64,000 nucleotides of DNA from Nitrospirales bacterium (lineage in GTDB: Bacteria > Nitrospirota > Nitrospiria > Nitrospirales > UBA8639). The DNA lies in the NCBI GenBank assembly GCA_963422365.1, contig OY729426.1, forward strand, positions 2,208,001 through 2,272,000. The letters are read 5' to 3'. Position 1 is the stretch's first letter. Every line of letters begins with the position of its first letter. Shown here piece after piece: positions 2,283 through 39,051 of the stretch. A model generated the notes under the pieces. That model was not told the origin of the DNA. It ran no database searches and worked only from the letters and a program-made list of their open reading frames with translations. The translations under genes and the position numbers were made by a program.

Positions 2283-3122
2283 TCAACCTCTATTCGCAAC
2301 ATGCCGTCTGTTGGCTTCGGGTGGTGCAGTCTCCTTGATTTCATAAGCCTTCGCATACTTTCCAAAGGTGTGAAAACCCGCAAACATCGCCGCAATCAAG
2401 CCAGGCAGTCCATCTTTCCATCCTTGTCGGAGGATCAAGGTCTTGATGATGATCCAAATATGATGGCCAAAAAGATTCATGAACGTGACTTCCCGAAGAG
2501 TTTTTAATTTTTCTCGAGCAGCCAATGACGTATATTGCATCATTTTTCGAACATGATGCGTAATCGTGGGCACAGAATGATGGTCTAAAAGCCCGCGAAG
2601 ATCCCCAATGTCTCCCTTAAGCTCTAGATTTTCATGCAGCAACGTATCATCATATCGACCCATGTCTTTTCGAAATAAGCGAACCTGAAGGTCAGGAAAC
2701 ATCCCTCCATGCTTCATCCACTGTCCGTAGAAAAAATTTCGTCGAGCAACTCGGTACCCTACGATATGTGGCTCTTGTCCGTTTTTTTTAAGGCCTTGAA
2801 TCTCGTCACGCAAACTATCGGTCACACGTTCATCCGCATCCACAATAAATATCCAATTGCCTCGAGCCCGTTGGATCGCAAAGTTTTTTTGAGGCCCAAA
2901 TCCTTTCCATGGCTCAATAAAAATTCGCTCCGTGAATTCTTGAGCCTTTTCCACGGTTGAATCGGTACTTTCGGAATCCACGATTATGATTTCATCGACC
3001 CACTTGAGGCTATCCAGACAGTTACGAATATTCTGTTCCTCATTTTTGGTGATGACGATACCAGTCAGAAAATTGGAATCTACACAACCCTTGTGTTCGA
3101 CGTCCATAGTTTGTGTGCTCAC
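2283..3122 (-). CDS. Glycosyltransferase family 2 (LPS core beta-glucosyltransferase WaaE/KdtX-like)
   Basis: IVITKNEE, VDSESTD, WIFIVDADE, GWKDGLPGL motifs; LPS cluster context. Confidence 0.88.
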   Translation of the reverse strand: MSTQTMDVEHKGCVDSNFLTGIVITKNEEQNIRNCLDSLKWVDEIIIVDSESTDSTVEKAQEFTERIFIEPWKGFGPQKNFAIQRARGNWIFIVDADERVTDSLRDEIQGLKKNGQEPHIVGYRVARRNFFYGQWMKHGGMFPDLQVRLFRKDMGRYDDTLLHENLELKGDIGDLRGLLDHHSVPTITHHVRKMMQYTSLAAREKLKTLREVTFMNLFGHHIWIIIKTLILRQGWKDGLPGLIAAMFAGFHTFGKYAKAYEIKETAPPEANRRHVANRG

Positions 3123-3729
3123 CCTTGAAACCCGTGAGTCAAAATTTCTTTATAAAATCTTGGATTGAACCACCGATTTCGTCTCGGACGAAGCGGAGTT
3201 TTTGATGCTATTCGGCTTTGCATGACCTGAGGATGCGTCCCTCTGTAGCCTTTAAGAATATCATATGTCGGACAATATCGGGAATGATTTGCCTCTTTCA
3301 ATGCAGTTTTCTGCATAGACAGTCTTCCCTCACCTTCGTGCCGACTCACTTGGTATTGCAATTTTTGTTGCAAGACCTTGGGATCTTTGACCCATCCGTC
3401 ATGAAACACCCTTGCCTTGATGAGTCGTCCATACAGACCAGATTTGATCATTCGCTGTCTCTTACCTTTGGGCAAAGAATCGCAGCCATCGGTCGCTGAA
3501 TACACCCCGCAATGATTACGGATAATCTGTGTGGCCTTTCTGTACATCCACGGGTCTATACTCCAATAGTCCCCCTTCAACTGGACCATTTTGAACACCA
3601 ATCCCAACACCTCTGGATGCCCCAGGTATCGCTCCATCGCATTCTGAATTTCCGGATAATTTTCTTCATGCAACACTTCGTCACCTTGCACGAATAAGGC
3701 CCAATCACCGGTGCAATGAGATAAGGCAC
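3119..3729 (-). pseudogene. 3' part of a GT2 glycosyltransferase split by the Mu-like element
   Basis: Reads ALSHCTGDWALFVQGDEVLHE... and joins in frame to the 5' part at 7928-8170 (QQDIA|LSHC) once the element and one TSD copy are removed. Confidence 0.9.
3725..3729 (+). repeat. Left target-site duplication copy (GGCAC)
   Basis: 4/5 match to GGCAA at 7928-7932; directly flanks the terminal TG. Confidence 0.8.
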
Positions 3730-3845
3730 TGACGGCGGATGAAAATAAATGGGAATGGGATGAAGCGGGACAGGGGTTAAACAAATCAAGGAGTTAGGAG
3801 GGTCTTTTTCTCCATCGTGCGGCGGCGGAAAATAATGAGGAATTT
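3730..3845 (+). repeat. Left end: putative transposase-binding sites L1 (GAAAATAAATGGGAAT, 3741) and L2 (GAAAATAATGAGGAAT, 3828)
   Basis: Shared CGGCGGnnGAAAATAAnnnGGAAT motif, 87 bp apart; the core recurs inverted at the right end. Confidence 0.75.
3784..3796 (+). promoter_or_regulatory. IHF-binding consensus between L1 and L2
   Basis: AATCAAGGAGTTA is an exact match to WATCAANNNNTTR. Confidence 0.6.
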
Positions 3846-3946
3846 TCGAACAGGTGGGCGAAACAGGGGAGAAATCGGACAATTTCCCCCCTCCACAGGG
3901 GTGTGGCACGTCGGGGGATTTTCGGGAGAGAGAGTCCCCCCTCTGG

Positions 3947-4117
3947 TCATTGAGAGGCTACCCAGAGGATCTCCGCCGGGCGCACCCAGAGCACCCGGGC
4001 CGTGTTGTCCATCACGACGACGCGCTGCGAGGGGAGCTGGAGGAGCCGACGCCACAGGGCGAGGATCTGCTTCTCGCCTCTCATCACATAACACGCTCGC
4101 CCTGTTCATCCGCTCAT
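3947..4117 (-). pseudogene. Small phage ORF (56 codons) with a nonsense codon at position 4
   Basis: Strong RBS AAAGGAGG 5 nt before ATG AGC GGA TGA; the frame continues open to MRGEKQILALWRRLLQ...WVASQ*. Confidence 0.4.
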
Positions 4118-4223
4118 GCTTCCCTCCTTTCAGACCCACAAACAAAAAACATAGAGAAATTACCAACGCCTCAGCCGACACTCAGCCAGTCCAGCCCGTC
4201 CCGCCGTCGGGCTCCCCCTTCCC

Positions 4224-4252
4224 TTGACAGGCGCCCGTCCCCCGGGTATGCT
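4224..4252 (+). promoter_or_regulatory. Sigma70-type promoter convergent to the MuF gene
   Basis: TTGACA (4224-4229), N17, TATGCT (4247-4252) in otherwise very GC-rich DNA; predicted +1 at about 4259. Confidence 0.8.
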
Positions 4253-4258
4253 CCTTGT

Positions 4259-4325
4259 GGGGCTGGAGCCAATTTCGCTTGTCCCGGTTTCGGCCGCGCG
4301 TGAGGGTAGCGACTCACCCAGCCCC
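4259..4325 (+). ncRNA. Candidate 67-nt pseudoknotted small RNA (putative antitoxin or tRNA mimic)
   Basis: P1 GGGGCTGG/CCAGCCCC; CGGT-TTCG-GCCG hairpin; GTGAG/CTCAC hairpin whose loop AGCGA pairs with TCGCT (4275-4279); starts at the predicted +1. Confidence 0.65.
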
Positions 4326-4326
4326 C

Positions 4327-5607
4327 TCAGTCTTCCCCGAGCCTCCTCGCCGGGTTGAGCCGCAAGCGCCGCAGGTCGCTCGGTTTGATCCTTCCCAGAC
4401 TCGTCAGATACGTCTCGTGCCAATCCTGCGTGACCTTCACGGCGACGCGCCACACACGCCCCTCCTCATTGAAGACCCCCACGAGCACCCGATCCAACCG
4501 TCGTCCGGTTTGGCGATTGACCCCAGAGAACCACTCCCCCTCATCCAGGATCTTCTGCACCCGGGCGTAATCCGTGGGTGCCACATCGGGGTGGCCGGGG
4601 ATCCCCGGGATGCGCCCGGCCTGTTTCTCTGCGGTCCAGGGGGAGAGCCGCACCGTCCGGGACAGGCCCCCGAGGGTCTGCTGCACCGCCGGCGGCAGCA
4701 CTGCCACGGGCCAATCGCCCATCGGCCCCGCCCCGGCGTCAGCCTCAGGCCGTCGGGTCCCTGAGGGCGGATGCAAGAATTGCCGGAACACCGCCCCGCC
4801 CCAGGGCTGCCCGATAGCCGCCTGCGCCAGGGCCGCGGGCGCCGCGTCCAACCGGCCGATAAACTGATCCGCCACCGCCCGATCCACCTGGGCCCGGCCC
4901 ACGTGATGCGCCCACCCGGGCTCAAGGCCCACGGGCACCTGCGTCACCCGGCCCGTGCGGCGATTCTGCCAGGGCACCCGGCGCTCGGAGCCCGCCGGGG
5001 GGCCGTCGGCCACCCGATAGCCGTGGCTCGCGAGGTCGGCCGCATCCAGTTGCTGGACCAGGCAGCGACAGTTCCAGCCGTTGGGCGGGTAATGGGTCTG
5101 CCACCAGGGATCGTCCACCGGCAGCACCGTGCCATGCCAGGCCGCGTGCGCGGGCCGGGTGCGGCCGTCCAACACCGCCACGTACCGGAGATACGGCAGC
5201 TCGGCTTTGACCCGGTCGATGCGAGCCCAGCGGCCGGCGCTATAGGCGGTGGCGAGATTGGTGCGGAAGATGGTGCGCAGGCGGGCGAGGCTGCCGAGTG
5301 TCACCCGCCGGGGCGTGCCCGTCAGGGGATCGGGCTGCCACTGCTGGCCCCACCAGCCCTTGCGCACTAGGAGCGGCTCGAGGGCGTCCTGGAAGTGAGA
5401 CAGCGTGGTGCCCTCTGCGAGCGCCGCGTCGACGGCCACGCGCACGTCCTGCAATAGATCGAGTTGCAGCATTTTCGCGACCGTAAAGCTGCGCACGTGC
5501 AGGGCCGCGTCGGTGTCCCGCCAGTCGAAGCCCACGTGAAAGCCCTTGGCCCGGAAATGGTCGACGGCCTCGGCGGCGGGCAGATTGAGAATCTCCGGGT
5601 CAGGCAT
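4327..5607 (-). CDS. Phage Mu F-like minor head protein with C-terminal BECR-type (PBECR2-like) nuclease extension
   Basis: MuF motifs RLRTIFRTNLATAYSAGRW, YVAVLDGRTRPAH, YPPNGWNCRC; C-terminal VRLS..T.EKQ...HPD...DY...VKVT...E.YLTS pattern; start placed at MPDPEIL. Confidence 0.85.
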   Translation of the reverse strand: MPDPEILNLPAAEAVDHFRAKGFHVGFDWRDTDAALHVRSFTVAKMLQLDLLQDVRVAVDAALAEGTTLSHFQDALEPLLVRKGWWGQQWQPDPLTGTPRRVTLGSLARLRTIFRTNLATAYSAGRWARIDRVKAELPYLRYVAVLDGRTRPAHAAWHGTVLPVDDPWWQTHYPPNGWNCRCLVQQLDAADLASHGYRVADGPPAGSERRVPWQNRRTGRVTQVPVGLEPGWAHHVGRAQVDRAVADQFIGRLDAAPAALAQAAIGQPWGGAVFRQFLHPPSGTRRPEADAGAGPMGDWPVAVLPPAVQQTLGGLSRTVRLSPWTAEKQAGRIPGIPGHPDVAPTDYARVQKILDEGEWFSGVNRQTGRRLDRVLVGVFNEEGRVWRVAVKVTQDWHETYLTSLGRIKPSDLRRLRLNPARRLGED

Positions 5608-5620
5608 CAGTCCGTTGGGT

Positions 5621-5657
5621 CCCTCACCCCCAGCCCCTCTCCCAGAGGGAGCGGGAG
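5621..5657. repeat. REP-like palindromic element (CCCTCACCCC...CCCTCTCCC-nnn-GGGAG family)
   Basis: Related copies at 5983-6017 and 10376-10410. Confidence 0.55.
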
Positions 5658-5725
5658 AAAGAAGGGGGACGCTGCCGCGGGTCGGCCGCGAGGCGGCAGC
5701 CCCCGTGCCCAGCCGGTGCAAGGGC

Positions 5726-7120
5726 TCATCCTGAGGCCTCCGGGGGGTCCGCGGCTCCCGACAGGTCGGCAGCAAATCCGGTCCGGTGCAGGCGCTGCGT
5801 CACAGGGTCGACGGCCGCCTCACCGCCCGGCCCCTGCTCCAGTGCGGCGCTCACCGCCGCCAGAGACGTGGCTTGGCCGACGACCTCGCGCACCGGGGCG
5901 ACCACGGGCTCCAGCAGCGGCTCCCAGTCATCCAGGATCGCGGAGGTGGCGGCCTCCAGGGTGGCGTCGGTGGCCCGGGCTGCCCTCACCCCGGGGCTCT
6001 CCCGTGAGGAGAGGGGGCGAAGAGGGAGCGAGTGGGCGGCGAGCGTCACCGGTGCGCCCGGAGCGGGCGCCGGAGTGCCGGCGTGGGCGGGCGTCTCCAC
6101 CCACTCGCCGCCGTAGACCGATTGCACGTGGGCGAGCGTCGGGCGCCGCCCGGCGGTGCGGGCCACGATCTCCTCGCGCACGGCCCGGGCATCGAGATCC
6201 TCCGGCGGGGCGGCATCGCGGTGCAGCCGCGGCACGGCCGCCCCCGGCCAATTCCAGGCCGCCCACCAGCGCACCACGGAGGTATTGAGGGCTGCGTCCA
6301 GTAGCCGGCAGTCGGCTTCGACGGTCTCGTCGCGTACATCTTTTTGGACCTCCGCGGTGCCCCGCCAGGGGCCTTGGTCGGTGGTCGAGGATTGGCCGAG
6401 GATGCGCCGGGTGATCGCCCGATCCCAATACTCGATATAGGCCAGGTGGCTGCCCTCCGAGCGCCGCACGGCCTCTAAGAGCTCGATCGATTGGTCCTCG
6501 GGGATGGCGACGCCGGAGGCCCCCGCCAGGTCGCGGAGTAGCCCCAGCAGCCGATCCACCTCGGCCTGGTCGGCCCCCCGGCGATACGTGGCCTTCGCCG
6601 TCGGGGTCCCAAATTTTTCAAGTGCCGTGGCCCAAAATTTGACCCCGAGGCGCTTGAGCTCCACGGGCCAATAGCACCAGCGGGCCAGGCCGACCCCGTG
6701 CGGCACGTCGCCGTGCTCCCCCGGGCGGGCGAGCAGGACAAATTTGTGCGGCGGCACGGGCACGCCCTGAGGCGCCGCTTCGGTGCGCAGAGCCAGGTCG
6801 CCCCGGGCATCCCAGCAGAAGCGATCCGGTGCGCGGACCCTCAGGGCGGCCAGATGCACGCCGGCGGCAGAGGGCTGCCAGACGGCCTCGGCCACGGCGT
6901 AGCCATACCAGACGGCGTAGAGCAGTCGCCGGCACACGAGATCGAGATCGAGCGCCTGGAGTTCGTCGCGCAGGGCCTCAGCGGCGCGCCGATCCCGCCG
7001 CCGCTCCCCCCCGGGCTCCACGGCCCAGGACTTGGCCACGGCGGCGTCGAGCCGCTGGTCCAGCGCACTCGCCACCCGCTCGTCCCGAAGTACCTCGCGG
7101 TACAGCCGCAGGGAGGCCAG
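5726..7120 (-). CDS. Mu gp29-like portal protein (DUF935), probably 5'-truncated
   Basis: YREVLRDERV..LDQR, LYAVWYGYAVAE, HGVGLARWCYWP, LEKFGTP, ILGQSSTT motifs; homology extends upstream of the GTG at 7075 with no in-frame start codon. Confidence 0.85.
   Translation of the reverse strand: MASLRLYREVLRDERVASALDQRLDAAVAKSWAVEPGGERRRDRRAAEALRDELQALDLDLVCRRLLYAVWYGYAVAEAVWQPSAAGVHLAALRVRAPDRFCWDARGDLALRTEAAPQGVPVPPHKFVLLARPGEHGDVPHGVGLARWCYWPVELKRLGVKFWATALEKFGTPTAKATYRRGADQAEVDRLLGLLRDLAGASGVAIPEDQSIELLEAVRRSEGSHLAYIEYWDRAITRRILGQSSTTDQGPWRGTAEVQKDVRDETVEADCRLLDAALNTSVVRWWAAWNWPGAAVPRLHRDAAPPEDLDARAVREEIVARTAGRRPTLAHVQSVYGGEWVETPAHAGTPAPAPGAPVTLAAHSLPLRPLSSRESPGVRAARATDATLEAATSAILDDWEPLLEPVVAPVREVVGQATSLAAVSAALEQGPGGEAAVDPVTQRLHRTGFAADLSGAADPPEASG
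5983..6017. repeat. REP-like element inside the portal coding sequence
   Basis: CCCTCACCCCGGGGCTCTCCCGTGAGGAGAGGGGG; the portal frame stays open through it. Confidence 0.5.
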
Positions 7121-7176
7121 GTCGTCTCGCGGCAGCGTCCTGGGGAAGGGAGAAGCCGTGATGATGAGCAGGGCGC

Positions 7177-7317
7177 CTAGAGCCAGAAGTAATCCAGCAG
7201 GAGGGTGAGCCCGGCGAGCACCGCCACCGGCACCAGCACCAGGCCGAGGGGGAGCATCACGCCGGCGAGGAGGACAAATTTCAGCAGATCCCAGAGGGTG
7301 TCTTCTTGAATATCCAT
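7177..7317 (-). CDS. 46-aa hydrophobic membrane peptide (moron-like)
   Basis: MDIQEDTLWDLLKFVLLAGVMLPLGLVLVPVAVLAGLTLLLDYFWL*; absent from the ORF track; possible TTGAGA-N18-TAGTCT promoter with TG extension upstream. Confidence 0.6.
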   Translation of the reverse strand: MDIQEDTLWDLLKFVLLAGVMLPLGLVLVPVAVLAGLTLLLDYFWL

Positions 7318-7337
7318 ACGTGAGCGGAGACTAGCAC

Positions 7338-7466
7338 ATGGCGGGGAGAGATCTCAAGCTCAGCCTGCGGATTGCCACGGAGCTCGGGCAGACGAGAGCC
7401 AAGCTCACTCGACTCGAGAGCGACCTGCGCGATCTCCGGCGGGTGAGGGTCAGTAGATGGTGTTGA
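7338..7466 (+). pseudogene. Tape-measure-like N-terminal stub, copy 1
   Basis: MAGRDLKLSLRIATELGQTRAKLTRLESDL, paralogous to the stub at 7628; GGAG RBS upstream. Confidence 0.55.
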
Positions 7467-7569
7467 TGAGGGCGACGAGGCCGGCCAGCAGCAGCCCACA
7501 GACGGCAGCGGGGCCGAAGATGCCCACCACAAAGAAGAGGACCCACTCTCGAAACGTCCCATGATCCAT
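7450..7569 (-). CDS. 39-aa hydrophobic membrane peptide (moron-like), probably leaderless
   Basis: MDHGTFREWVLFFVVGIFGPAAVCGLLLAGLVALINTIY*; ATG lies 7 nt after a -10 box. Confidence 0.65.
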   Translation of the reverse strand: MDHGTFREWVLFFVVGIFGPAAVCGLLLAGLVALINTIY

Positions 7570-7576
7570 ACCCAAC

Positions 7577-7605
7577 AGGATACCACGGCCGCGAGGGGGC
7601 GTCAA
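7577..7605 (-). promoter_or_regulatory. Sigma70-type promoter for the 39-aa peptide
   Basis: TTGACG-N17-TATCCT on the minus strand. Confidence 0.7.
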
Positions 7606-7627
7606 GCCCTCGGAGGAGATCGGAGCC

Positions 7628-7870
7628 ATGGCTAGAGACCTCAGGCTCGCGTTGCGGATCCAGGCCGACCTCGGGCAGACGCCCGAGCGGCTCAACAGGC
7701 TCAAAGGGCAGCTCGGAGGGGTGGCCGGTGGCGCCAACGCCATCAGACGGCAGAGCGGCCCGGCCGCGAGGGGGCTCCGGTCGCTCGGCACGGCCGCCCG
7801 TGACGCCGTCCTCCTCTTCGGGCGGGCTGGGGCCACCCTCTTCGTACCCCACAGCGCCACCCGCGGTCTC
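7628..7870 (+). pseudogene. Tape-measure-like N-terminal stub, copy 2, truncated at the element right end
   Basis: MARDLRLALRIQADLGQTPERLNRLKGQLGG..., Ala/Gly-rich helical; GGAGG/GGAG RBS; the frame runs into end DNA. Confidence 0.6.
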
Positions 7871-7878
7871 TACGTATT

Positions 7879-7927
7879 CACTCGTAAGACTTTTCTAGCC
7901 ATTCCTAATTATTTTCGTTCGGCTACA
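7879..7927 (-). repeat. Right end: putative binding sites R1 (GAAAATAATTAGGAATG) and R2 (GAAAAGTCTTACGAGTG), 21 bp apart
   Basis: R1 begins 11 bp inside the terminal TG, exactly as L1 does; R2 is 12/17 identical to R1. Confidence 0.75.
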
Positions 7928-7932
7928 GGCAA
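7928..7932 (+). repeat. Right target-site duplication copy (GGCAA)
   Basis: Restores GAT ATT GCC TTA TCT (D-I-A-L-S) in the host gene. Confidence 0.8.
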
Positions 7933-8170
7933 TATCCTGTTGTATGCTGAATATTTCTCCCTTTACGCACAAATCCTCATCTCATTCCGTCTCAATGATC
8001 CTAATCTTCTGTGACCCGATCGACCGAATACGTTCCAGGGTATCGTCTTCGGAGTGCCCGACGTTGACGATACACTCATCCACAAGTGGCAACGCTGACG
8101 TAATGGCTTCAACGATCGGAAAGTCGTATTGAATGGCATTCCGCATGAATGTCAACCCGCTGACGTTCAT
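7928..8170 (-). pseudogene. 5' part of the split GT2 glycosyltransferase, with an extra nonsense codon
   Basis: MNVSGLTFMRNAIQYDFPIVEAITSALPLVDE...IIETE*DEDLCVKGEIFSIQQDIA; TGA at 7982-7984 sits where a Trp is expected. Confidence 0.9.
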
Positions 8171-8234
8171 ACACTCAACTTCCTGATTTTGTTGAAAATC
8201 TGAAGACTCAACAATCTCTCTGAAATTCATTTGT

Positions 8235-26151: not shown

Positions 26152-28611
26152 ATGGACCAAGAACTTCATCCCGCTCCTCAACATATTGACATTCCTGACA
26201 ATTTGCCGTTGATTCCCGTCCGGGATATCGTCGTGTTTCCTTACATGGTTCTGCCCCTGTTTGTCGGGCGAGAAATGTCAATCAAAGCAATTGAGACGGC
26301 CCTCGCCGGCAATAGAATGGTCCTGTTGGCGGCTCAGAAAGCCCACGATACTGAATCTCCAAAACCAGCAGACATTTTTAAAACCGGGACCGTTGGCATG
26401 ATCATGCGCATGCTGAAACTTCCCGATGAACGGATCAAAATTTTAGTGCAAGGTCTTGCCAAAGCTACAATCGTCGACTATCTCCAGTCTGAACCGTTTT
26501 ACTCCGTTCGCATTCAAACCGTATCGGCTTCTCAAGCACAATCACCGTCTCTCGAGATTGAAGCCGTCATTCGTACCGCAAAAGAGGGGATAGACCGGCT
26601 CACAAGTCTTGGGAAAGAGTTAATGCCGGACGTCATGGTGGTCATTGAAAACCTGGATGAACCGGGCCGACTAGCAGACATCATTGTGTCGAATCTCGGG
26701 TTGAAAGTGGAAAGAACCCAGGAAATTTTGGAAATCGAAAATCCGATGACCCGATTAAAGCGCGTGACGGAGATCCTCTCGAAAGAAATTGAAGTCTTGT
26801 CGATGCAACAAAAAATCCAGGCCGACGCCAAGGGTGAAATTGATAAAACCCAGCGTGAATATTTCCTGCGTGAGCAGTTGAAAGCCATTCAAAAAGAACT
26901 CGGAGAATTGGATGATCGGGCGGAAGAAGTGGCGGAATTCCGAAAGCGTATTGAAGAATGCCACATGCCAGAAAAGGTTATGAAGGAAGCAGAGAAGCAG
27001 CTGAAGCGGCTAGAAAAAATGCACCCTGATACGGCCGAAGCGGCGACAGTACGCACCTACATGGAATGGATGGTTGAGATTCCTTGGAGTCACACCTCCC
27101 CAGACAATCTGGATATTCAAGCTGCCCAAAAAGTCCTCAACGAGGACCACTATGATTTGGAAAAGGTCAAAGAACGCATCCTCGAATATTTGGCCGTACG
27201 CAAACTCACAGAAAAACACAAAGGCCCAATTCTTTGCTTTGTCGGTCCACCGGGTGTGGGAAAAACGTCGTTGGGGAAATCCATTGCGCGGGCCTTGGGT
27301 CGAGAATTTGTGCGCATGAGTCTGGGCGGCGTGCGAGACGAAGCCGAAATCAGAGGGCATCGCCGAACGTACGTTGGGGCTTTACCTGGACGTATCATGC
27401 AAGGAATCAAGCAGGCAGGAACGAATAATCCCGTGTTCATGCTGGATGAAGTCGATAAAGTGGGAATGGATTTTCGTGGCGATCCCTCAGCCGCGCTTTT
27501 GGAGGTTTTAGACCCCGAACAAAATCATGCGTTCACGGATCATTATTTAGGCGTCCCTTTCGACCTCAGCAATGTGATGTTCATCACGACCGCGAATCTC
27601 ATGGACCCCATTCTTTCCGCGCTCCGAGATCGAATGGAGATCATTGGAATTCAGGGATATACCGAAGAAGAAAAACTTGGGATTGCCCGTCGCTATTTAA
27701 TTCCTCGGCAACTGGAACAACATGGAATCTCGGAAAAATATTTTCGAATGACCGATCCCGCCGTTCAGAGAATCGTCACTCACTACACGCGGGAAGCCGG
27801 TGTCCGTAATCTGGAACGAGAACTCGCCAATGCCATGCGAAAAGTTGCCAGACGAGTCGCCGAAGGCAAACCGAAACGCTATTCCATCACACCACATTCT
27901 CTCCGCACCTATTTCGGTATTCCCAAATATCTCCCGGAAACCGAAAAGGAAAAAGATCAGGTGGGGTTGACCATCGGGCTCGCGTGGACGGAAACGGGCG
28001 GCGAGACGCTTCACGTCGAAGCCACCGGGATGCAGGGTAAAGGGAATCTGACCTTAACGGGCCATCTCGGTGATGTCATGAAGGAGTCCGCCCAAGCCGC
28101 ACTGAGTTATGTCCGTGCACAGGCCCGCACGCTAAACATCAAACAGGAGACCTTCGCTACGACCGACATCCATATTCATGTTCCCGCAGGCGCCATTCCT
28201 AAAGATGGGCCGTCAGCGGGGATTACCATAGCCACAGCACTTGCCTCGAGTTTAGCAAATATCCCCGCCAGACACGATGTCGCCATGACAGGAGAAATCA
28301 CGTTGCGTGGACGGATTCTCCCCATCGGCGGTTTGAAAGAGAAAATACTTGCGGCAAAGCGAGCCTCAATTCCTCGCATCATTCTTCCAAAACGAAATGA
28401 AAAAGATTTAGAAGACCTCCCGAAACATTTGCTGAAAGGCGTGAAGATGATTTTTGCGGAAACCGTGAGTCACGTGTTTGCCGCGGCACTTCAACGACCA
28501 GTTCACGCGCGCAGCACACCCAAAACGCCAAAACCCTCACACACCAAAACCGTCTCGCCGAACCGAAAAAAACGGGTGGACGCCTTGCCTGCAAAAAGGA
28601 CTCGGCGGTGA
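26152..28611 (+). CDS. lon: ATP-dependent protease La
   Basis: [33 protein letters not shown] motifs. Confidence 0.98.
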
Positions 28612-29720
28612 ACTGCTCGAAAGCTCTCCCTTCTACATTACGGACAAACAAATCCTCTAGCCGTGGCTCCCTCAAGACGATCGGAGAATTTGGCCTGATC
28701 CGACAACTGAAGCAGCAATGGGCCATCTCCTCTCCACGGGTGGTCAAAGGCATTGGCGATGACGCGGCAATTCTGAAGGCACCTCAAGGCCAACAGCTTC
28801 TGATGAGTACCGATGCCTTCATTGAGGGGGTGCATTTTGACCTCACCTATCAAACCCTGAAGGATGTGGGATTTCGCGCAGGGGTGGCCAACCTCAGTGA
28901 CATCGCGGCTATGGGAGGGAGACCGCTGTACCTGCTTGTGTCCATGGCTCTTCCTGCTCAGATTCCAACCCCAAAAATTCGAGAGTGCTATCGCGGGATC
29001 CAAGACTCCTGTGGCCCCTGCCACGTCGAATTGATCGGCGGAGATACCTCGTCGTCTCCATCTAATATTTTTCTGAGTCTGACCATCATGGGATCCATTC
29101 AAGCGAATCGTGCACTTACGAGAAATGGGGCTAAAGTGGGGGACTCTATTTATGTGACTGGGACATTGGGTGATTCCAATGCCGGCCTTCACATTTTGCA
29201 AACTCATTCAAAAAGCCACCGAAGTCCCAGACTATCGGCCGTTGAAAAATTTTTAACCCAGCGTCATTTACGACCCACCCCACGGATTCACATAGGACAA
29301 TGCCTGGCAAACCAAGGCGTTGCGCAGGCTGCCATCGACCTCTCTGATGGACTATCTTGCGACATTGGTCATATCTGTGAAGAAAGTGGGGTGGGTGCCG
29401 AGGTCTGGGGAAAGGCCCTTCCCCTCTCTTCCCAACTTCACGCATTTGCGCAACAACATAACGTGGACCCCATAGAGTTCGCTTTGAGAGGAGGCGAAGA
29501 TTATGAGATCCTGTTTACCGCCCCTACAAAAAATCACCAAAACGTGTTAAATGTTTCCAAACAAACCAAGGTGCCTATTTCCTGCATTGGCACAATAAAA
29601 CCAAAAAAATTTGGTCAACAACTTGAGTGTCCTGAAGGCCGCAAACAAAAACTTTTGAAGAAGAGTTTTAACCACTTTAGCGGGAGACACATCTCCCATT
29701 CCCCGATTCCATCATCGTGA
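28608..29720 (+). CDS. thiL: Thiamine-monophosphate kinase
   Basis: GEFGLI, GIGDDAA, NLSDIAAMGG, GGDT, DLSDGL, GGEDYE motifs. Confidence 0.96.
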   Translation: MNCSKALPSTLRTNKSSSRGSLKTIGEFGLIRQLKQQWAISSPRVVKGIGDDAAILKAPQGQQLLMSTDAFIEGVHFDLTYQTLKDVGFRAGVANLSDIAAMGGRPLYLLVSMALPAQIPTPKIRECYRGIQDSCGPCHVELIGGDTSSSPSNIFLSLTIMGSIQANRALTRNGAKVGDSIYVTGTLGDSNAGLHILQTHSKSHRSPRLSAVEKFLTQRHLRPTPRIHIGQCLANQGVAQAAIDLSDGLSCDIGHICEESGVGAEVWGKALPLSSQLHAFAQQHNVDPIEFALRGGEDYEILFTAPTKNHQNVLNVSKQTKVPISCIGTIKPKKFGQQLECPEGRKQKLLKKSFNHFSGRHISHSPIPSS

Positions 29721-30202
29721 CAGCCTTCAAACGCGTTCTCGCTAAAATACAGGAAGCCCTCCACCTTCAAGAAACACCCCAACGAACAGCCGTTGCTTTT
29801 TCTCTCGGGGTCTTCATCGCGTTCACTCCAACCTACGGACTTCATTGTGTCAGTGTGATTGTCTTAGCCTGGGCGTTCCGTCTGAATTTTCCCGCTCTCT
29901 TGGTCGGTGCATTCATTAATAATCCCTGGACCATCGCCCCGATTTTGGGAGCCACGATGTGGACGGGATTTTTTCTGTTAGGAATGCCGGAAGTCCCAGA
30001 TGTTTCCTGGAATAATCTTTCGATCACGACACTGTACGAATTCGTCCTTCCCTTCGTTCTTCCTTTTACCCTTGGAGCCCTTACCCTGAGTGTGTTTGGC
30101 GCCTTGCTGGCCTATCCCTTGGGCGTGCTCTTGGTTTCTTGGTATCGCAAACAATATGCAGCCCAACCAAGCCACCAACTGGCTCGAAAGAAACCAGCAT
30201 AA
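29717..30202 (+). CDS. DUF2062 family membrane protein
   Basis: TPQRTAVAFSLGVFIAFTP, NNPWT motifs; hydrophobic. Confidence 0.85.
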   Translation: MTAFKRVLAKIQEALHLQETPQRTAVAFSLGVFIAFTPTYGLHCVSVIVLAWAFRLNFPALLVGAFINNPWTIAPILGATMWTGFFLLGMPEVPDVSWNNLSITTLYEFVLPFVLPFTLGALTLSVFGALLAYPLGVLLVSWYRKQYAAQPSHQLARKKPA

Positions 30203-30407
30203 CGACACTTCCACGGAATGCGAAAATGCGATCGTTTCTTGAAAGGTTATGAATTCACATGTTCCTTTCCCTTACCTATCATCATCACATTGATGATGCC
30301 TCAGCTTCGCCCGATCCAGAAATGTGGTATTCTGTTTAGTTGTTCGTGCCATAACGCTACGTTAAGATTCACAGGAGATTGTTCCATCCCTTCTGACTCG
30401 ACACTTA

Positions 30408-31787
30408 ATGGCTCAACCAGCACCTCATGACATTTCGCTTATTGCCGATCCTATTCATCACTACATTCAATTTACGGTTCCTCATTCCTCATCCGACTCT
30501 GACGAAACAACGGAAAAAGATTTAATCGATTCTCCCTGGATCCAACGCCTTCGGTACATCTATCAACTGCAAAGCGCACGATGGGTCTATCCTGGAGCGG
30601 AACACAGTCGGTTCCAACATTCTCTAGGGGCCATGCATCTTGCCGGACAATATGCGAAGCATGTGTATCCCACCCTCGCCCAAACAGTTCGGGATGTTCC
30701 CACGCTCCCTTATATCGAAGCCTTACTCAGGGTCACCGCACTACTCCACGATGTCGGACATGGCCCCTTTTGTCATTTTTTTGATCACCACTTTCTTCAA
30801 CAATACGGTTTATCCCATGAACACGTGAGTCAAGCCATTATTCGTCATGAAGTAGGCCCTCTGATTCGACAAGTACGACGCAGTCCTTCAGGAAGGTTTG
30901 CGAACCATGAAACGCTCGATCCCGATTATCTTGCGTTTCTGATTTTGAAAGATCCCAACAAACAAAGTCGGCACTATCCTCGATGGCTTCAGCTCCTCCA
31001 GCCATTAATCGGCGGGCTTTTCACGGCAGACAACTTCGACTACGTCTTGCGCGATTCCTATATGTGTGGAGTCGCGATCGGGCCAGTGGATATTCCTCGA
31101 CTGATTCATTACACGTTGATCACCCCAAAGGGGTTAACACTCCATAAAAATGGCTTGCCCGCCCTTCAAATGTTTCTCAATGCCAGACTCTATCTCTATT
31201 CCAATGTGTATTATCATCGCACCTCACGAGCAATTGATCTTCACCTCTTGGAGATTTTCCATGAAACCATGGAATGTATTTTTCCCCATAACCCGCTTCA
31301 ACACATGCAGAAATATCTCCGGCTTACGGATTGGTCTCTCTTGGAAACGGTCCGCACCTGGGAATCGTCATCGAATCGTCAGAAACAGCGGATCGGGAAA
31401 GAATGGGCTCGCGTGTTGGAACGCCAAATAAAATGGAAAACAGCCTATAGCAAAGTCTTGACGATTCGAGACTGCCGTCCACGAGGGCCAGTGGCGACAC
31501 CTGCAAAGCTTGAATCTCGTATTCGTCAAAAATTGCCTCGCCGACTGCAGGGTCTTATCTTTCGAGTAGATATTGCCAGCAAAGATACGCGCCCCTTCAA
31601 CGTTCTCAACATGGGCCAGTTTCAGTTTTATCTCTATGACCCAGCAACCCAGTCCGTCGAAAAAGAAAAGCTGCAAGAACTTTTGGCCTTTTTGCCCTCG
31701 CATATCGTCCAACTTCGAATTTTTGCTGAAAATCATCATGCCGACTCAGCGTTAGCTAAGGCAGCCGAACAGGTACTTGATGGCTAG
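30408..31787 (+). CDS. HD-domain phosphohydrolase (dNTPase/SAMHD1-like)
   Basis: QRLR.IYQL, HSRFQHSLG, LLHDVGHGPF, ADNFDYVLRD, VYYHRT motifs. Confidence 0.9.
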   Translation: MAQPAPHDISLIADPIHHYIQFTVPHSSSDSDETTEKDLIDSPWIQRLRYIYQLQSARWVYPGAEHSRFQHSLGAMHLAGQYAKHVYPTLAQTVRDVPTLPYIEALLRVTALLHDVGHGPFCHFFDHHFLQQYGLSHEHVSQAIIRHEVGPLIRQVRRSPSGRFANHETLDPDYLAFLILKDPNKQSRHYPRWLQLLQPLIGGLFTADNFDYVLRDSYMCGVAIGPVDIPRLIHYTLITPKGLTLHKNGLPALQMFLNARLYLYSNVYYHRTSRAIDLHLLEIFHETMECIFPHNPLQHMQKYLRLTDWSLLETVRTWESSSNRQKQRIGKEWARVLERQIKWKTAYSKVLTIRDCRPRGPVATPAKLESRIRQKLPRRLQGLIFRVDIASKDTRPFNVLNMGQFQFYLYDPATQSVEKEKLQELLAFLPSHIVQLRIFAENHHADSALAKAAEQVLDG

Positions 31788-31850
31788 CGATGATGGGAGA
31801 AATGGGCTTTTCCCCCGGGGGATTGTGGAGAAGGAGCACGGATGCTTCAG

Positions 31851-34160
31851 TTAATTTGAAGCCCACGGCAGACTCTGTTCATCCCCAAGAAGAGGGCCTA
31901 AAATACTCTTGAGGATTTGGGTTCCTAATCCGGTCGTAGCCCCCACGCCACGTAACGTGAGGACAAAATTAAATTGATTTCGTTCGGGAAGATCCTCTCC
32001 GCCCGACAAGTGAATGTAATAAAGGCCAAGCGACCAACATTTGCAGGGATTTTGATACAATCCAACGACATCCCATTCAGGGGTCTGTCCCGTGACAAAA
32101 TTATGATAGGCCTTTGTCCCAACTGTCCACCCTAATGGTAGACGGACAGCACTACCTACTGTAAAGAAATTAATTTCTGGTTGAGCGGACAATACTTCGT
32201 TAAAGGACAACGGATTCCAGATGTCTCCACGGCGGGGGATCGTTCCTGATCGTGCATAGCGGTGTCCCAATTGCACATAAGCCTGTTGATGCGCCTGCAC
32301 CGTGACATTTGAATTAAACTGTGTAAATTCCTGGTCACTCGGATTATAGAACGTATCAACACTCAGGCTGAGTCGATTCAAAAACTCCGGCAATTGCGTC
32401 ACAGGAAGTTCGAGCGTTGCCTTTCCCCACAAATCAGAAAAAGTATTCGCTTGGCCAGAGATGTCACCAAGATGGTAACTTTGAGCAATCACAAAATCCA
32501 GTAACGTCATAGACCGTTTGCCGCTCCATTCATCTCGTAAGCGGGTTCTCAGGGAATAAGTCAGCAAGTGTTTTTTCAATAAATTATCAGTGGCATCGAT
32601 CTGCGGAAGATCGGATTGTGTGGAAGCCGGTACGTATTCGTAGAACAAGCGAGGTTCAATCGTATGACGCAGTCGATGCCTATTTCCTACTCGAAATCCA
32701 CGTGACACATTCGAGACCGCCTCCAAGCCAAGCCAAAACGTCCCCCGATCACGAGCATCATCGTGAGCGGTCGACCGTCCCCGAGAGTAGAGAACCTCTC
32801 TGATTTTGAACTGCGGACGAAGACCGATCATATGCCCGAGATGCAACCCCTGAACGGCAAGAGTCGGCATGATATCGAAACGGCTGACATGGAACCCTTG
32901 CTCACGAACAAAGTGCACAAATGTCGAATCCATTCCAATATCGAGATTGACCATTTCTCCTCCCACGGTCAATCGACGCCCATACCGATGCCCAATTTCG
33001 GGTAACCGTTGAAACGTCTCTCGTCCCCCCGAGTTTAATGGTTGTAAATATTGGGCCTTGAGATAGGCGATCCCACCCGGCAATCGATGCATCACATTCA
33101 GCACGGATTCCTGGCTCGGCAGCGCCCGAAAAATTCCAGACGCACTCAGATCCCGTAAGAGTGTCCGATCGGTCGCATAGTTAATGTTGGCTTGAATCAG
33201 AAGATCGTCATTCACTCGCTGAACATGGGCACCCGTAATTTGTGCACGAGATTGATCCTCTTCAGTATCATTAAACGCATTAATTAACCATTGTCCCCTC
33301 GAACGGCGATTCAGAATATAACGATATGACACATCTCCACCTTGTCCTCGTTTGGAGAGAATTTGTGGCGCGACGGTCAGGTCTTGACTCGGGGAAATGG
33401 CCCAATAGAACCCTTGGCGATATTGGAAACCTAGAATATTGTCGAACCCGACCGTAGGAATCAAAAATCCGGTTTTTCTGGCGCCCGGCATCGGATAGCG
33501 CAACACAGGAATCGGGACAATCGGGTGATTGCGAACATTCAGCCATACATTTTTGGCAAACACGCTATCGCCTTGTTCCACGTCCACATCGTGAAACGAA
33601 AAACTCCAATCGGGAATTTGCCCATCATCCGCTTCGCAATTCGTAAACATGCCATCCTTCGCACGATAATGCGTTTCAGAAAACCGTTGAAGGAGACGAC
33701 CTTGGAGCCACGTCTTGGTTTCTTTCAGAAAAACTTTCCCATTGACGATAAGAGCGAACTCCGTATTCACATTGATGGTCAGCTCTTCCGCCCACACATC
33801 AGTCACGTGATCCTTGAGATGAACATGGCCCGTAGCCGTTAAGCGGCCGGAAAGTTTATGAAGGATGGCTTGGTCGGCGGTCAACCGGACGTCACCCTGA
33901 GTCACCACCACTGAACCAAAGGCTTTGAATTCCTCTGTGACTTGATCGAACTCGGTTCGTTCAGCCGTGATGTTGAGAGGGGAAGAACTTTCTGATCCTG
34001 ATGACTTCGCCACGGGAAAAATGGGCTGCGCATGGACAACACTCGCCAAAGCGAGAACGGCCTGACTGACAACCAAGAGACCAACCACCAGTCTATTGAC
34101 CAACCAGCCGTAACGGGAATGACGGCCCAATCGGTTATCCCTGGACGGGCTCATAGGCAT
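31851..34160 (-). CDS. lptD: LPS assembly protein LptD
   Basis: OstA-like N-terminal domain, FTNC, RKTGFLIP, QRLPE, HTIEP, CKCW; beta-barrel character. Confidence 0.88.
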   Translation of the reverse strand: MPMSPSRDNRLGRHSRYGWLVNRLVVGLLVVSQAVLALASVVHAQPIFPVAKSSGSESSSPLNITAERTEFDQVTEEFKAFGSVVVTQGDVRLTADQAILHKLSGRLTATGHVHLKDHVTDVWAEELTINVNTEFALIVNGKVFLKETKTWLQGRLLQRFSETHYRAKDGMFTNCEADDGQIPDWSFSFHDVDVEQGDSVFAKNVWLNVRNHPIVPIPVLRYPMPGARKTGFLIPTVGFDNILGFQYRQGFYWAISPSQDLTVAPQILSKRGQGGDVSYRYILNRRSRGQWLINAFNDTEEDQSRAQITGAHVQRVNDDLLIQANINYATDRTLLRDLSASGIFRALPSQESVLNVMHRLPGGIAYLKAQYLQPLNSGGRETFQRLPEIGHRYGRRLTVGGEMVNLDIGMDSTFVHFVREQGFHVSRFDIMPTLAVQGLHLGHMIGLRPQFKIREVLYSRGRSTAHDDARDRGTFWLGLEAVSNVSRGFRVGNRHRLRHTIEPRLFYEYVPASTQSDLPQIDATDNLLKKHLLTYSLRTRLRDEWSGKRSMTLLDFVIAQSYHLGDISGQANTFSDLWGKATLELPVTQLPEFLNRLSLSVDTFYNPSDQEFTQFNSNVTVQAHQQAYVQLGHRYARSGTIPRRGDIWNPLSFNEVLSAQPEINFFTVGSAVRLPLGWTVGTKAYHNFVTGQTPEWDVVGLYQNPCKCWSLGLYYIHLSGGEDLPERNQFNFVLTLRGVGATTGLGTQILKSILGPLLGDEQSLPWASN

Positions 34161-35436
34161 TTCCTGTCATAAGGCTTTTCACAGACCCCACAAGAAACAA
34201 TGATCCTGTAATACAGATAAGATCGTTTTCACTCGCCAAACACATTGCCAAGTCAATTGCCGTTCGAGGCGAGTCGCGCTCATACAAGGGGGCATCAATG
34301 ACTGGCAGCGCCTCTTTTAAGGCCTGCACAGTGGCTGACCGAGGATAATTGATTTGCGTCAAAATTACCATATCGGCTAGCGGGGTCAACGTGTTCAAAT
34401 ATACAGTCAAGTTTTTGTCCTGCATCATCCCGACCACCAAAATAAGACGGCGACCTCGTTGTTCAGACATTTGCCGTTGCACATAGATCTTGAGGCATTC
34501 TGCCGCGGCTGGATTATGAGCTCCATCGCACAGGATCAAAGGATGACGCCGCAGTCGTTCAAGTCGACCCGGCCAAGAGACTTGCTCTAGGCCTTCTCGA
34601 ATGGCCCACTCAGGAATCGGCATGTGGGGCATCACACTGGATTCAAGGACAGCTAAGGCACAGGCAACATTGACCGATTGGTGTTGTCCTTCCAGAGCAC
34701 AGCGAAGATTCAGGTACTCTCGACCCATCCCGACAAAATCGAATTCTCCAGACGCATGAAAAACACTCACAAACTCGCGGCCAAATTTCAACAGTGGAAC
34801 CTGTTTGTGTCGTGCTTGCTCCTGCAAGACCCAGTCTATTGATTGTTCGACCGGTCCTATCACCATCGGAACATGACGCTTCATAATCCCCGCTTTCTCA
34901 ACCGCAATAGCCTGAAGGGAAAACCCCAGATATCTCTCATGATCGAATGAAATATTGGTCATGACCGTACCGATCGAATGGCAAACATTCGTCGCATCGA
35001 ATCTCCCGCCCATCCCAACTTCCACCACGGCGATTTCCACCTGTTCTTCAGCAAAATACTGAAAGGCCATGGCGGTGGCCACTTCAAAAAATGTCGGCGG
35101 CACAGCAAACGAAGGCAGCAATTGGATTCGGGTGAACAGTTCAACTACTCGATCTTCGGGAATGACCGCCCCTTGCACTTGGATTCGTTCACGAAAATCA
35201 AGAAGATGCGGAGAGGTATACAAACCAACGCGGACTCCAGCAGCCCGAAGAATCGAAGCTGTTATGGCGGCAACGGACCCCTTGCCATTGGTTCCAGCAA
35301 TGTGAAGAACTGGAAAACGCCGCTGGGGATCTCCCAGTTCTGACAATACCAAGGAAACCGTTTCAAGCCCCAGCTTGATTCCAAACCGTTGCAACTCGTA
35401 TAGGCGTTTTCGTGTAGTTTCGTAGGAATACTTCAT
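34135..35436 (-). CDS. folC: Folylpolyglutamate synthase / dihydrofolate synthase
   Basis: HIAGTNGKGS, YTSPHL, EVGMGGRFDATN, WPGRLE, DGAHNP motifs. Confidence 0.97.
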   Translation of the reverse strand: MKYSYETTRKRLYELQRFGIKLGLETVSLVLSELGDPQRRFPVLHIAGTNGKGSVAAITASILRAAGVRVGLYTSPHLLDFRERIQVQGAVIPEDRVVELFTRIQLLPSFAVPPTFFEVATAMAFQYFAEEQVEIAVVEVGMGGRFDATNVCHSIGTVMTNISFDHERYLGFSLQAIAVEKAGIMKRHVPMVIGPVEQSIDWVLQEQARHKQVPLLKFGREFVSVFHASGEFDFVGMGREYLNLRCALEGQHQSVNVACALAVLESSVMPHMPIPEWAIREGLEQVSWPGRLERLRRHPLILCDGAHNPAAAECLKIYVQRQMSEQRGRRLILVVGMMQDKNLTVYLNTLTPLADMVILTQINYPRSATVQALKEALPVIDAPLYERDSPRTAIDLAMCLASENDLICITGSLFLVGSVKSLMTGNAYEPVQG

Positions 35437-35682
35437 CAACAATCCCAAGGGGGGAGTGTATCAACATCGAAGCCCGGTAACTACCCAAAAAAATTGCAGA
35501 ACTCTCCTTCTCTGATGCCAGAATTCGATTGTCCGCATGAGAAAGGCCCAGCAAACGAGGGGGACATGACGGTATGTCGAGCCTCAAGCACCGCTCCTTG
35601 GCCGTTGTTCTCTTCTCGCAGCCCCTTTGCAAAACTCAGGGCTGGCGCAGGGTAGGCAGGACAGGGTTGCTTCAACATCCCG

Positions 35683-36528
35683 TTAAGCACTGGCACTCAG
35701 ATGCCGTAAAACAGTGTGGATCGTATCTCGAAGATCGGGTCGACTCACAATGGCATCAATCATACCATGTTCAAGTAAAAACTCTGCGCGTTGAAACCCG
35801 TCAGGCAAGCGCTGCTTGATGGTTTGTTCAATGACTCGTGGTCCTGCAAACCCGATCAGGGCTTTGGGTTCAGCTAGGATGATGTCCCCTAACATCGCTA
35901 CGCTCGCGGTGACTCCTCCGAAAGTTGGGTCTGTCAGGAGAGAAATGAACGGCACTCCGGCTTCATGAAGCTGCGCCAGTGCCGCCGAAGTCCTCGCCAT
36001 TTGCATGAGAGAAAGTATGCCTTCTTGCATTCTCGCTCCCCCTGACGTCGTCACGAGCAAAAACGGCCTGTTTCCCCCGGCAGCCCGATCAGCAGCACGA
36101 CAAATCTTTTCTCCAACCACAGACCCCATACTGCCCCCCATAAATGCAAAATCAAAAATCCCCACAATCACCCGACGATCATGAAGCCTCCCTTCGCCCG
36201 TGACGATGGCATCGTGTCTCCCCGTTTTCTTCTGATGGATCTCAAGGCGTCCAGGGTAGGGTTGGGTATCGACAAAAGTCAGAGGATCGCCAGGTGCGAA
36301 TTCGGTATCCCACTCTTGAAAGCTGTCTGGGTCGAGTAAGACTTCAATTCGCTCTGGGACCGATAAGGGAAAATGGTATCCACATTTGGGACAGAGTTTA
36401 AGATTTCGATTGACCTCTTTTCGATAGACAGCAGCACGGCAAAAGGCACATTTGACCCACATGCCCTCAACGATGTTCAGCTTACCCTTTTCCTGGTTTT
36501 TCGACGAGCTCTTTTTAAACCAACCCAT
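35683..36528 (-). CDS. accD: Acetyl-CoA carboxylase carboxyltransferase beta subunit
   Basis: C4 zinc finger, FMGGSMGSVVGEK, SGGARMQEG, FAGPRVIEQT motifs. Confidence 0.97.
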   Translation of the reverse strand: MGWFKKSSSKNQEKGKLNIVEGMWVKCAFCRAAVYRKEVNRNLKLCPKCGYHFPLSVPERIEVLLDPDSFQEWDTEFAPGDPLTFVDTQPYPGRLEIHQKKTGRHDAIVTGEGRLHDRRVIVGIFDFAFMGGSMGSVVGEKICRAADRAAGGNRPFLLVTTSGGARMQEGILSLMQMARTSAALAQLHEAGVPFISLLTDPTFGGVTASVAMLGDIILAEPKALIGFAGPRVIEQTIKQRLPDGFQRAEFLLEHGMIDAIVSRPDLRDTIHTVLRHLSASA

Positions 36529-36581
36529 CGAGATGTTTCCCTTAGAAAAGGAACCGAGAAAAACGCGAGCAGCAGGGGCCA

Positions 36582-38080: not shown

Positions 38081-38360
38081 AGAAACGCGTCCCCCTTGGC
38101 GTAGACGATCCACCGGAAAACGGCGGAAGCAACGCGATTTCATCAGAGCTTGCAAGTTCGGTCTCGCCATGAGCAATGTTGTGATTCACCGACACAAGAA
38201 CTTTCCGTTTGAGCAACAAATCCCCCACATCGGGATTCATTGACTGGATCGCCACGATCAAATCATTGACGTGGCAGCCCTGATCTAACCTCACCTTCAG
38301 TTCAGGTTCATTGTGAAGCTGAGTTTTCAACAGGCCAAACAATTTTACCGTGACGGTCAT
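38067..38360 (-). CDS. moaD: Molybdopterin synthase sulfur carrier with C-terminal extension
   Basis: VTVKLFG...VSVN...DEIALLPPFSGG followed by SSTPRGTRFYVYR. Confidence 0.9.
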   Translation of the reverse strand: MTVTVKLFGLLKTQLHNEPELKVRLDQGCHVNDLIVAIQSMNPDVGDLLLKRKVLVSVNHNIAHGETELASSDEIALLPPFSGGSSTPRGTRFYVYR

Positions 38361-39045: not shown

Positions 39046-39051
39046 GCTTGC

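Follow-up and report, generated by a model that had tools for sequence, protein, structure and literature searches.

A 4.2-kb Mu-like prophage remnant in a Nitrospirales genome with a MuF gene and a predicted convergent small RNA

What does a transposable prophage keep when most of its genes are gone, and is it kept for its function or for its position? The question is raised by a 4.2-kb insertion at positions 3730–7927 of a 64,000-nucleotide stretch (the window) of contig OY729426.1 (positions 2,208,001 to 2,272,000 of the forward strand; assembly GCA_963422365.1, hereafter G000) from a Nitrospirales bacterium. A first-pass annotation, made from the sequence alone, had described the insertion as a mini-Mu with both transposition ends intact, almost the whole phage deleted, and a cargo consisting of a putative toxin-RNA pair and promoter-bearing morons. 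The best explanation of the locus as a whole, and a fairly likely one, is a KS10-type prophage that collapsed in place and left behind a MuF head protein, with a predicted RNase tail, and a predicted RNA that would serve MuF as decoy or antitoxin.

Two ends of a Mu-like prophage

The insertion has TG...CA at its termini, and its inverted-repeat ends are identical at 22 of 29 bases, a score that none of 200,000 random genomic 29-mers reached, confirming the ends that had been annotated. The flanks, GGCAC on the left (3725–3729, plus strand) and GGCAA on the right (7928–7932, plus strand), confirm the proposed 5-bp duplication as a match at four of five bases. An uninterrupted site was found in all six congener loci examined, and the closest congener has GGCAA once, so that the left copy differs by one substitution. 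Boundaries shifted by one base would yield a perfect AGGCA repeat but lose the TG/CA termini seen in sibling ends, and 3730–7927 was therefore kept. The guanine-plus-cytosine (GC) fraction is 0.689 within the element against 0.462 and 0.469 in the 3-kb flanks, in line with the GC-rich interior noted earlier.

The claim that both ends are intact held for one side only. The MuF-side end (3730–3843, plus strand), recognised by its motif and by comparison with related MuF-side ends, combines the TG terminus with 22-bp sites at 3735–3756 and 3822–3843, spaced 87 bp apart, and the MuF-side ends of related prophages have a like-spaced two-site layout. The tail-side end (7832–7927, minus strand) combines the TG terminus with one 22-bp site (7901–7922) and lacks the second tandem 22-bp site found in the sibling end with which it was compared (relic B, G000:1002737).

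Searches with Pfam and PHROGs found two minus-strand genes above cut-off, Portal_Mu (PF06074, E 1.4e-81) and Phage_Mu_F (PF04233, E 4.8e-25), and, as the annotation had stated, no transposase, terminase or capsid gene in the element. Most phage genes are indeed gone, but about 2.7 of the 4.2 kb is portal and MuF sequence, Mu head genes that the annotation had left unnamed; with the ends and the duplication, they support the Mu-type DDE origin that it proposed. The MuF gene (gp30/gpF, minor head protein; 4327–5607, minus strand), assigned by Phage_Mu_F and alignment, is intact and encodes 426 amino acids (aa), 50–59% identical over the full length to 49 aligned homologues (the top of 862 matches). 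The Mu-type portal gene (5726–7129, minus strand), assigned by Portal_Mu, has an open frame but no start: it has lost about 55 N-terminal residues together with its native start, and the first usable start is a GTG at 7075.

Two truncated tape-measure genes lie on the plus strand beyond the portal. The first N-terminal stub (7338–7466) is, by sequence comparison, paralogous to the start of the open reading frame (ORF) at 7628; the second (7628–7840), recognised by its identity to relic C of the host genome, is cut by a deletion. Positions 7584–7840 are 95% identical to the relic C tape-measure gene and 7832–7918 are 94% identical to the end of relic B, and the two similarities overlap by about 9 nt (7832–7840), forming a microhomology joint. 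The second stub appears to end at this deletion joint.

Terminase, portal and MuF close the gene order of related prophages, with no further phage gene before host DNA, and the end with two spaced sites lies 250–900 nt beyond MuF. A 40.3-kb relative between two ends (G050:C82:137284–177626) has tail and capsid genes towards one end, followed by repressor, MuA/B, terminase, portal, MuF, the RNA and the other end; its MuA and MuB have no counterpart in the window element. The organisation is that of KS10-type phages, with MuF and portal at one terminus, pointing outward and opposite to the tail genes. To judge from these sequences, the element appears to consist of the two termini of a KS10-type Mu-like transposable prophage with at least two internal deletions, which removed the region from the portal start to the morons before the tape measure and everything from about codon 70 of the tape measure up to the tail-side end. 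The toxin-RNA pair of the annotation stands in outline, given the PBECR-like tail of MuF and the linked structured RNA described below, but it is the native terminal module of the parent phage and not acquired cargo. The small promoter-bearing ORFs are likewise present; the two tape-measure starts accompany them.

Was the element shortened where it now lies, or did it arrive short? Mini-Mu elements can be mobilised in trans, and the annotation had offered mobilisation by a helper phage beside reduction in place, adding that a single copy together with relatives carrying a longer prophage at the same site would point to decay. The element is single-copy in the 98.6% complete host genome, neither its portal family nor its end motif occurs in any of 37 congeners, and no second copy beyond a 40-nt repeat was found by DNA comparison in 30 relatives. 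In run X5, from another study and nearly identical to the window, the element lies at the identical site: a left contig covering 2165–4235 crosses the junction without a difference, a second contig crosses the right junction, no empty-site joint is among those listed, and none of the loose ends listed falls at either boundary (55 further loose ends lie beyond those listed).

Helper genes were sought with 29 queries drawn from related prophages, two for MuB among them. No match in G000 was obtained for MuA, MuB, terminase, capsid, protease or repressor; only tail J, a minor tail protein, the tape measure and the portal matched, in phage relics. Three MuA queries had no match in G000 and each matched one control viral locus only, and a query labelled MuB and an IstB query matched a locus near 720 kb of G000. 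A Pfam search of G000, run without a working positive control, also found no helper transposase.

The host genome retains the remains of several related prophages: besides the ends and MuF of the element, it has eight tail-side ends and three MuF copies, all three of them broken. The deletions differ from relic to relic, D and F excepted. A duplication test for partner ends, applied to every other tail-side end but the truncated one at 1673162 (seven of eight), convincingly recovered only the window's own pair, so these other relics are not shown to be two-ended. Genome G053 holds two-ended elements of 3,987 and 5,667 bp that differ in their interiors, each flanked by a perfect 5-bp duplication; neither deletion joint is spanned anywhere else in that genome, even though it has MuA genes. 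Recurrent independent collapse explains the remnants in G000 and G053.

Beyond these two elements, G053 (4.6 Mb; loci L036, L195–L201 and L214) has 17 MuF matches and 31 end-motif matches, and its two-ended elements of about 4.0, 5.7, 20, 27.5 and 40 kb form a series of decay stages. Genome G051 has an 11-kb two-ended element with one damaged end.

A non-autonomous mini-Mu, deleted elsewhere and then moved into the host gene by the transposase of a helper prophage since lost, is a rather unlikely origin. It would fit the two TG ends, the target duplication, the several prophages of this group that the host genome once held, and an insertion that is not ancient, since the portal and MuF frames are open, against the broken sibling copies, and the host gene has a single nonsense change. 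Mobilisation is at odds with the one copy, the absence from congeners, the missing binding site at the tail-side end, the shared site in X5 with no other flank among the loose ends listed, the lack of any MuA, MuB or helper among the matches to these queries, and the G053 elements, which were not amplified despite the MuA genes there. Decay in place fits better with the single copy, the site common to the window and X5, the microhomology joint, the lack of a helper match and the independent collapses in G053, and the deletions probably happened after insertion at the present site. The test named in the annotation was borne out in its first half; for the second, the congeners have the empty site and, as a point against the order of insertion followed by deletion, no relative with a longer prophage there was found.

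The MuF tail and its convergent RNA

MuF residues about 296–426 (nt 4327–4722) form a PBECR-like domain with a predicted BECR RNase fold. The structure model is confident over residues 300–420, and BECR RNases top the wider structural list, led by CdiA-CT (Z 5.4, root-mean-square deviation (rmsd) 3.4, 86 aligned) and followed by BrnT (Z 5.2, rmsd 3.0, 75 aligned) and colicin D (Z 4.6, rmsd 2.4, 77 aligned), with RelE-types below. A related locus, L153, matches the MuF tail profile (E 2e-18) and the window tail pairwise (E 7e-9) and itself passes the PBECR3 cut-off. His339 and Thr402/Ser403, majority residues in our alignment that were placed by motif and not by the published figure, fit the PBECR signature of a His in the N-terminal helix region and a C-terminal Thr/Ser. 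The available part of Iyer et al. (2017, PMC5512222) gives this His and Thr/Ser signature for MuF proteins fused to a C-terminal BECR-fold domain beside the portal. On balance, the MuF tail may be expected to be an active RNase, with somewhat better than even chances.

A lone MuF of 887 aa at L038:10001–12664, among host genes, carries a tail of the window type followed by an ADP-ribosyltransferase (ART)-like domain.

Convergent with MuF, a sigma70-like promoter matched by consensus (TTGACA-17-TATGCT; 4224–4252, plus strand) faces a predicted structured RNA of about 72 nt (4257–4327, plus strand), whose 3′ end abuts the MuF stop and which was delimited by covariance and linkage. Two sigma70-like sites were found against 0.2 expected. 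The structure, drawn by eye from 16 aligned copies, has a 7-bp closing stem stacked on a 5-bp 3′ hairpin, a 3-bp middle hairpin and a possible 5-bp loop-loop pairing. Over the 16 copies, 87% of cells are paired, and 10 of 20 pairs, spread over all four helices, show two-sided change; none of 500 shuffles reached the covariation score, and slid versions paired at 39–50%.

The RNA is tied to MuF. In G000, the RNA model has four matches, each beside one of the four MuF copies, and the same promoter and RNA arrangement lies behind related MuFs in other hosts. A model-free test, which asked for a closing stem plus a −10 box behind the MuF stop, was passed by 17 of 83 MuFs of 365–445 aa, none of 26 longer, none of 23 shorter and none of three others, against 4 of 484 controls (duplicates and edge loci dropped). 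A second set of 80 metagenome loci, 66 of them usable and a few repeating earlier loci, gave 12 of 42 extended MuFs, none of 6 longer, none of 17 shorter and none of one other, against 3 of 209 controls. On the same 80 loci the covariance model had five matches, four of them held out from its building and at E < 0.001, and all four antisense to MuF and within about 800 nt behind it. Of the 14 matches elsewhere in a genome scan with the model, 13 are training sequences or identical to them. Scoring 150 candidates per genome gave no match in G052 or G054, there was no significant match near Mu gp30, KS10 gp1 or B23 F, and Rfam gave none for the window region (E 1), for L196 and L197 (gathering cut-off) or for ten distant loci (E 0.5).

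That the RNA is not a gene but a GC-rich terminator-like or chance stem behind MuF is very unlikely. Of 484 control positions, 130 have a closing stem by itself, and the stability of the window copy is unremarkable (z −0.56; island F alone has an unusually stable copy, z −2.96), but a chance stem would not come with a promoter-like site of its own, conserved motifs in its single-stranded parts, changes on both sides of pairs in each of the four helices and four held-out model matches, nor would it account for the T-arms found in distant counterparts. Transcription of the RNA and its folding into the drawn structure are, in our view, highly probable.

A 7-bp stem stacked on a 5-bp stem is the geometry of the acceptor and T stem of a tRNA. 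The likeness of the window RNA to tRNA is confined to this stacked geometry, and the canonical cloverleaf is not formed. A canonical T-arm was found behind 7 of 124 extended MuFs against none of 938 control positions, and ARAGORN called one of these seven a tRNA-Ala, starting one base from the MuF stop, the single tRNA call at this position among 50 related loci. Among T-arm loci, four of the five scanned have MuF_C matches. As the window-family RNA has no canonical T-loop, its common descent with the T-arm RNAs is suggested by position and shape.

A longer second RNA type (90–115 nt, conserved and with motifs of its own) lies convergent behind more distant MuF tails at L113, L233, L218, L062, L068, L124, L153 and L181, and PBECR2- and MuF_C-bearing proteins have further RNA types behind MuF.

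In the mechanism that we propose, a full KS10-type prophage would have inserted into a likely glycosyltransferase gene and collapsed in place by at least two internal microhomology deletions, leaving both ends, the start-less portal, the tape-measure stubs and an intact MuF-RNA module. MuF may be readable from two moron promoters upstream of the broken portal, and the RNA would act as a decoy or antitoxin that binds the colicin-D-like MuF tail. The part of Jamet et al. (2017, PMC5576092) that is available reports an immunity ORF for 89.4% of 191 MuF toxin genes. Here, no small co-oriented immunity ORF follows the MuF stop; the convergent RNA and its promoter stand there instead, and the nearest plausible minus-strand ORF, of no family, starts 240 nt away. 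Since the RNA takes the place of an immunity gene, tracks the MuF extension and is tRNA-shaped, a decoy is its most likely single function. That the RNA binds and restrains the tail, so that its loss before loss of the tail is disfavoured, is nevertheless a tentative proposal, no more probable than neutral survival in which the RNA has some other role in the phage.

Several observations weigh against the proposed mechanism. The structural scores are middling (Z below 8 throughout) and weak on their own, Foldseek found no match to the MuF tail in the PDB at E 0.001, the Atlas neighbours PBECR2 and MuF_C clusters score 0.86, which is a lead only, and none of 50 family members matches a PBECR Pfam model directly. 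The shuffle controls ignore kinship and favour a structure drawn from the same data; the minimum-energy fold of the window RNA differs from the drawn structure, and RNAalifold on eight copies keeps the closing stem and pairs the interior differently. Most extended MuFs fail the strict stem and −10 test (66 of 83 and 30 of 42), ARAGORN finds no tRNA in the window, and neither L040, where the tail is kept and an insertion sequence (IS) lies at the stop, nor L038, where the tail is fused to the ART domain, has an RNA match. Terminal genes survive central deletions by position alone, and the related loci were found via MuF, which makes MuF retention among them circular.

A rival reading is plain neutral decay, in which MuF and RNA survive only because they lie beside an end and the RNA is a phage-cycle gene with nothing addictive about it; its chances come close to even. 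The RNA might then be packaged, serve the MuF tail as substrate or keep read-through from reaching the end. As targets of PBECR domains, the available text of Iyer et al. (PMC5512222) suggests CRISPR RNA or the mRNA of host or phage. Useless pieces such as the portal and the tape-measure stubs were kept as well, and three of the four MuF copies in G000 are broken. Other observations fit neutral decay less readily and are suggestive only: the RNA holds the usual position of an immunity gene, it occurs behind extended MuFs and not behind short ones, relics F and D keep it though their MuF-side end is gone, and phage Mu, whose tail is described as inactive in the same source, leaves no room for it because gp30 overlaps gp31.

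A domesticated defence island, in which the MuF tail, the RNA and small membrane ORFs block phages and the broken glycosyltransferase removes a receptor, is quite unlikely. The MuF gene is intact, two membrane ORFs bear promoters, and the element is fixed in samples of two studies and inserted in a surface-sugar cluster; however, the small ORFs matched no family and the element is absent from 37 congeners.

Other features and relics around the element

The gene interrupted by the element lies on the minus strand, with its 5′ part at 7928–8230 and its 3′ part at 3119–3729, both placed by alignment to congener proteins. The two parts align in a single frame to intact congener proteins of 307–319 aa, and one Trp-to-stop change near 7982 is the only damage besides the insertion. 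The intact congener has a weak GT2 score (PF00535, E 6.5e-4, below the cut-off) and the neighbours are lipopolysaccharide and sugar genes; the interrupted gene is likely, by sequence, to encode a GT2-like glycosyltransferase.

Within the element, the two moron-like hydrophobic ORFs are on the minus strand and have no family, one of 46 aa (7177–7317) and one of 39 aa (7450–7569), both from the ORF list. The 39-aa ORF is preceded by a sigma70-like promoter (7577–7605, minus strand, by consensus match only) directed towards portal and MuF. A further ORF of 46 codons (3947–4087, minus strand), also from the ORF list and without a family match, is of uncertain gene status, and the DNA at 4085–4157 resembles island A of the host genome. 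A short palindromic repeat separates portal and MuF (5620–5660, no strand assigned), with a similar one at about 5983–6030, and both recur many times in congener genomes.

Elsewhere in G000, the tail-side ends of relics A and C (G000:C1:889959–890759 and 1077382–1078181) are 99.75% identical over 801 bp and have the same five bases just outside, a pattern not accounted for by simple independent insertion. An exact duplication of 4,054 bp (G000:C1:1660473–1664526 and 1737266–1741319) stops about 110 bp before a Mu end at 1741431. Relic A has cas4 and a broken cas1 as its immediate neighbours (L001:211–1650). At L002:6738–8630 (from G000:1002737), a Mu end lies beside polA and is followed by an intact-looking 280-aa outer-membrane beta-barrel, surface-antigen-like, and by a tail-assembly-chaperone-like gene; no partner end was found for it. 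The island of L007, with a Mu-type end at G000:2196269, includes an ORF of 2,051 aa (L007:7358–13513) with an O-antigen ligase-like region and many leucine-rich repeats.

GC-rich islands of G000 (L001, L004–L006, L008, L009 and L012–L014) carry giant genes, likewise GC-rich and up to 4,375 aa long, that encode fn3, Ig, cadherin or PKD repeats; several of them lie beside Mu relics and have blocks in common that are 95–99% identical. That they are cargo of the elements was considered and is not supported: the island A end is inserted upstream of one, and in island F a host proteasome gene lies between. Together with proteasome genes, the giant repeat genes may point to an animal-associated Nitrospirota host. 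Near the ends of the single contig, G000:C1:10997–24161 repeats 2448366–2461530 (14.2 kb at 100%) and 27959–45779 repeats 2465326–2483169, with long tandem arrays of units of about 300 bp; these stretches are probably an untrimmed circular overlap.

Comparison with known systems

Defective two-ended Mu-like prophages and MuF-PBECR fusions are already known kinds. The element itself is an ordinary outcome, a prophage minus its middle, yet it is a clean natural two-ended mini-Mu, and such collapse recurs in other hosts. As in the transposable phage KS10, the terminase, portal and MuF genes of the parent would lie together at one end and point outward, apart from the other head genes and the tail, and its end sites would be repeated and A-rich. 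The available text of Goudie et al. (2008, PMC2628397) describes KS10 as a complete phage of 37.6 kb whose left end carries MuF, portal and terminase (record EU822883), and it reports no flanking direct repeat. The window element differs as a 4.2-kb remnant with an RNA that has no model match near KS10 gp1, and its sibling relic has lambda-like tail genes.

Phage Mu and mini-Mu have TG...CA ends, a 5-bp duplication and 22-bp sites that are spaced apart at one end but in tandem at the opposite one. The element shares these termini, the duplication and the site spacing, and, with laboratory mini-Mu, an internal deletion that retains both ends. Phage Mu (NC_000929) differs in gene order, with no RNA gene between gp30 and gp31.

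With MuF-PBECR proteins, the window protein shares a MuF domain, a predicted C-terminal BECR-fold domain with its His and Thr/Ser, and the place beside the portal; it differs in that its tail has no direct PBECR Pfam match, and no RNA partner is named in the available part of PMC5512222. It resembles the MuF polymorphic toxins in being a MuF with a C-terminal extension downstream of the portal, but their immunity is described, in the part of PMC5576092 that is available, as a small co-oriented ORF, whereas here a convergent RNA gene takes its place. That source also notes proteobacterial MuF extensions of unknown type (Ct_MAD).

A literature search outside subscription journals and supplements found neither an RNA beside MuF/PBECR nor natural two-ended mini-Mu relics of this layout, and the accessible portion of one preprint (bioRxiv 10.64898/2026.08.28.747851) makes no mention of a small RNA. 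To go by the accessible sources, the targets of MuF-PBECR have only been guessed at since 2017, and proteobacterial MuF extensions are without known immunity genes. What gives the locus its value is that a MuF tail is paired with a small, predicted tRNA-shaped RNA, with a promoter of its own, where an immunity gene would be expected.

Type III toxin-antitoxin systems such as ToxIN pair an RNase with an upstream repeat array of antitoxin RNA. The window locus resembles them in that a small structured RNA, possibly with a pseudoknot, lies next to a predicted RNase. It differs in that its RNA is a single convergent copy downstream, has its own promoter and matches nothing in Rfam, in that there is no repeat array upstream, and in that the predicted toxin domain, modelled with a BECR fold, is fused to a virion protein. 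A general class in which PBECR-tailed virion MuFs are controlled by convergent, tRNA-derived mimic decoy RNAs, set apart from type III, with a wide spread among transposable phages and an influence on prophage decay, is for now a doubtful extrapolation; if true, it would add an RNA-mimic mode of toxin control undescribed so far.

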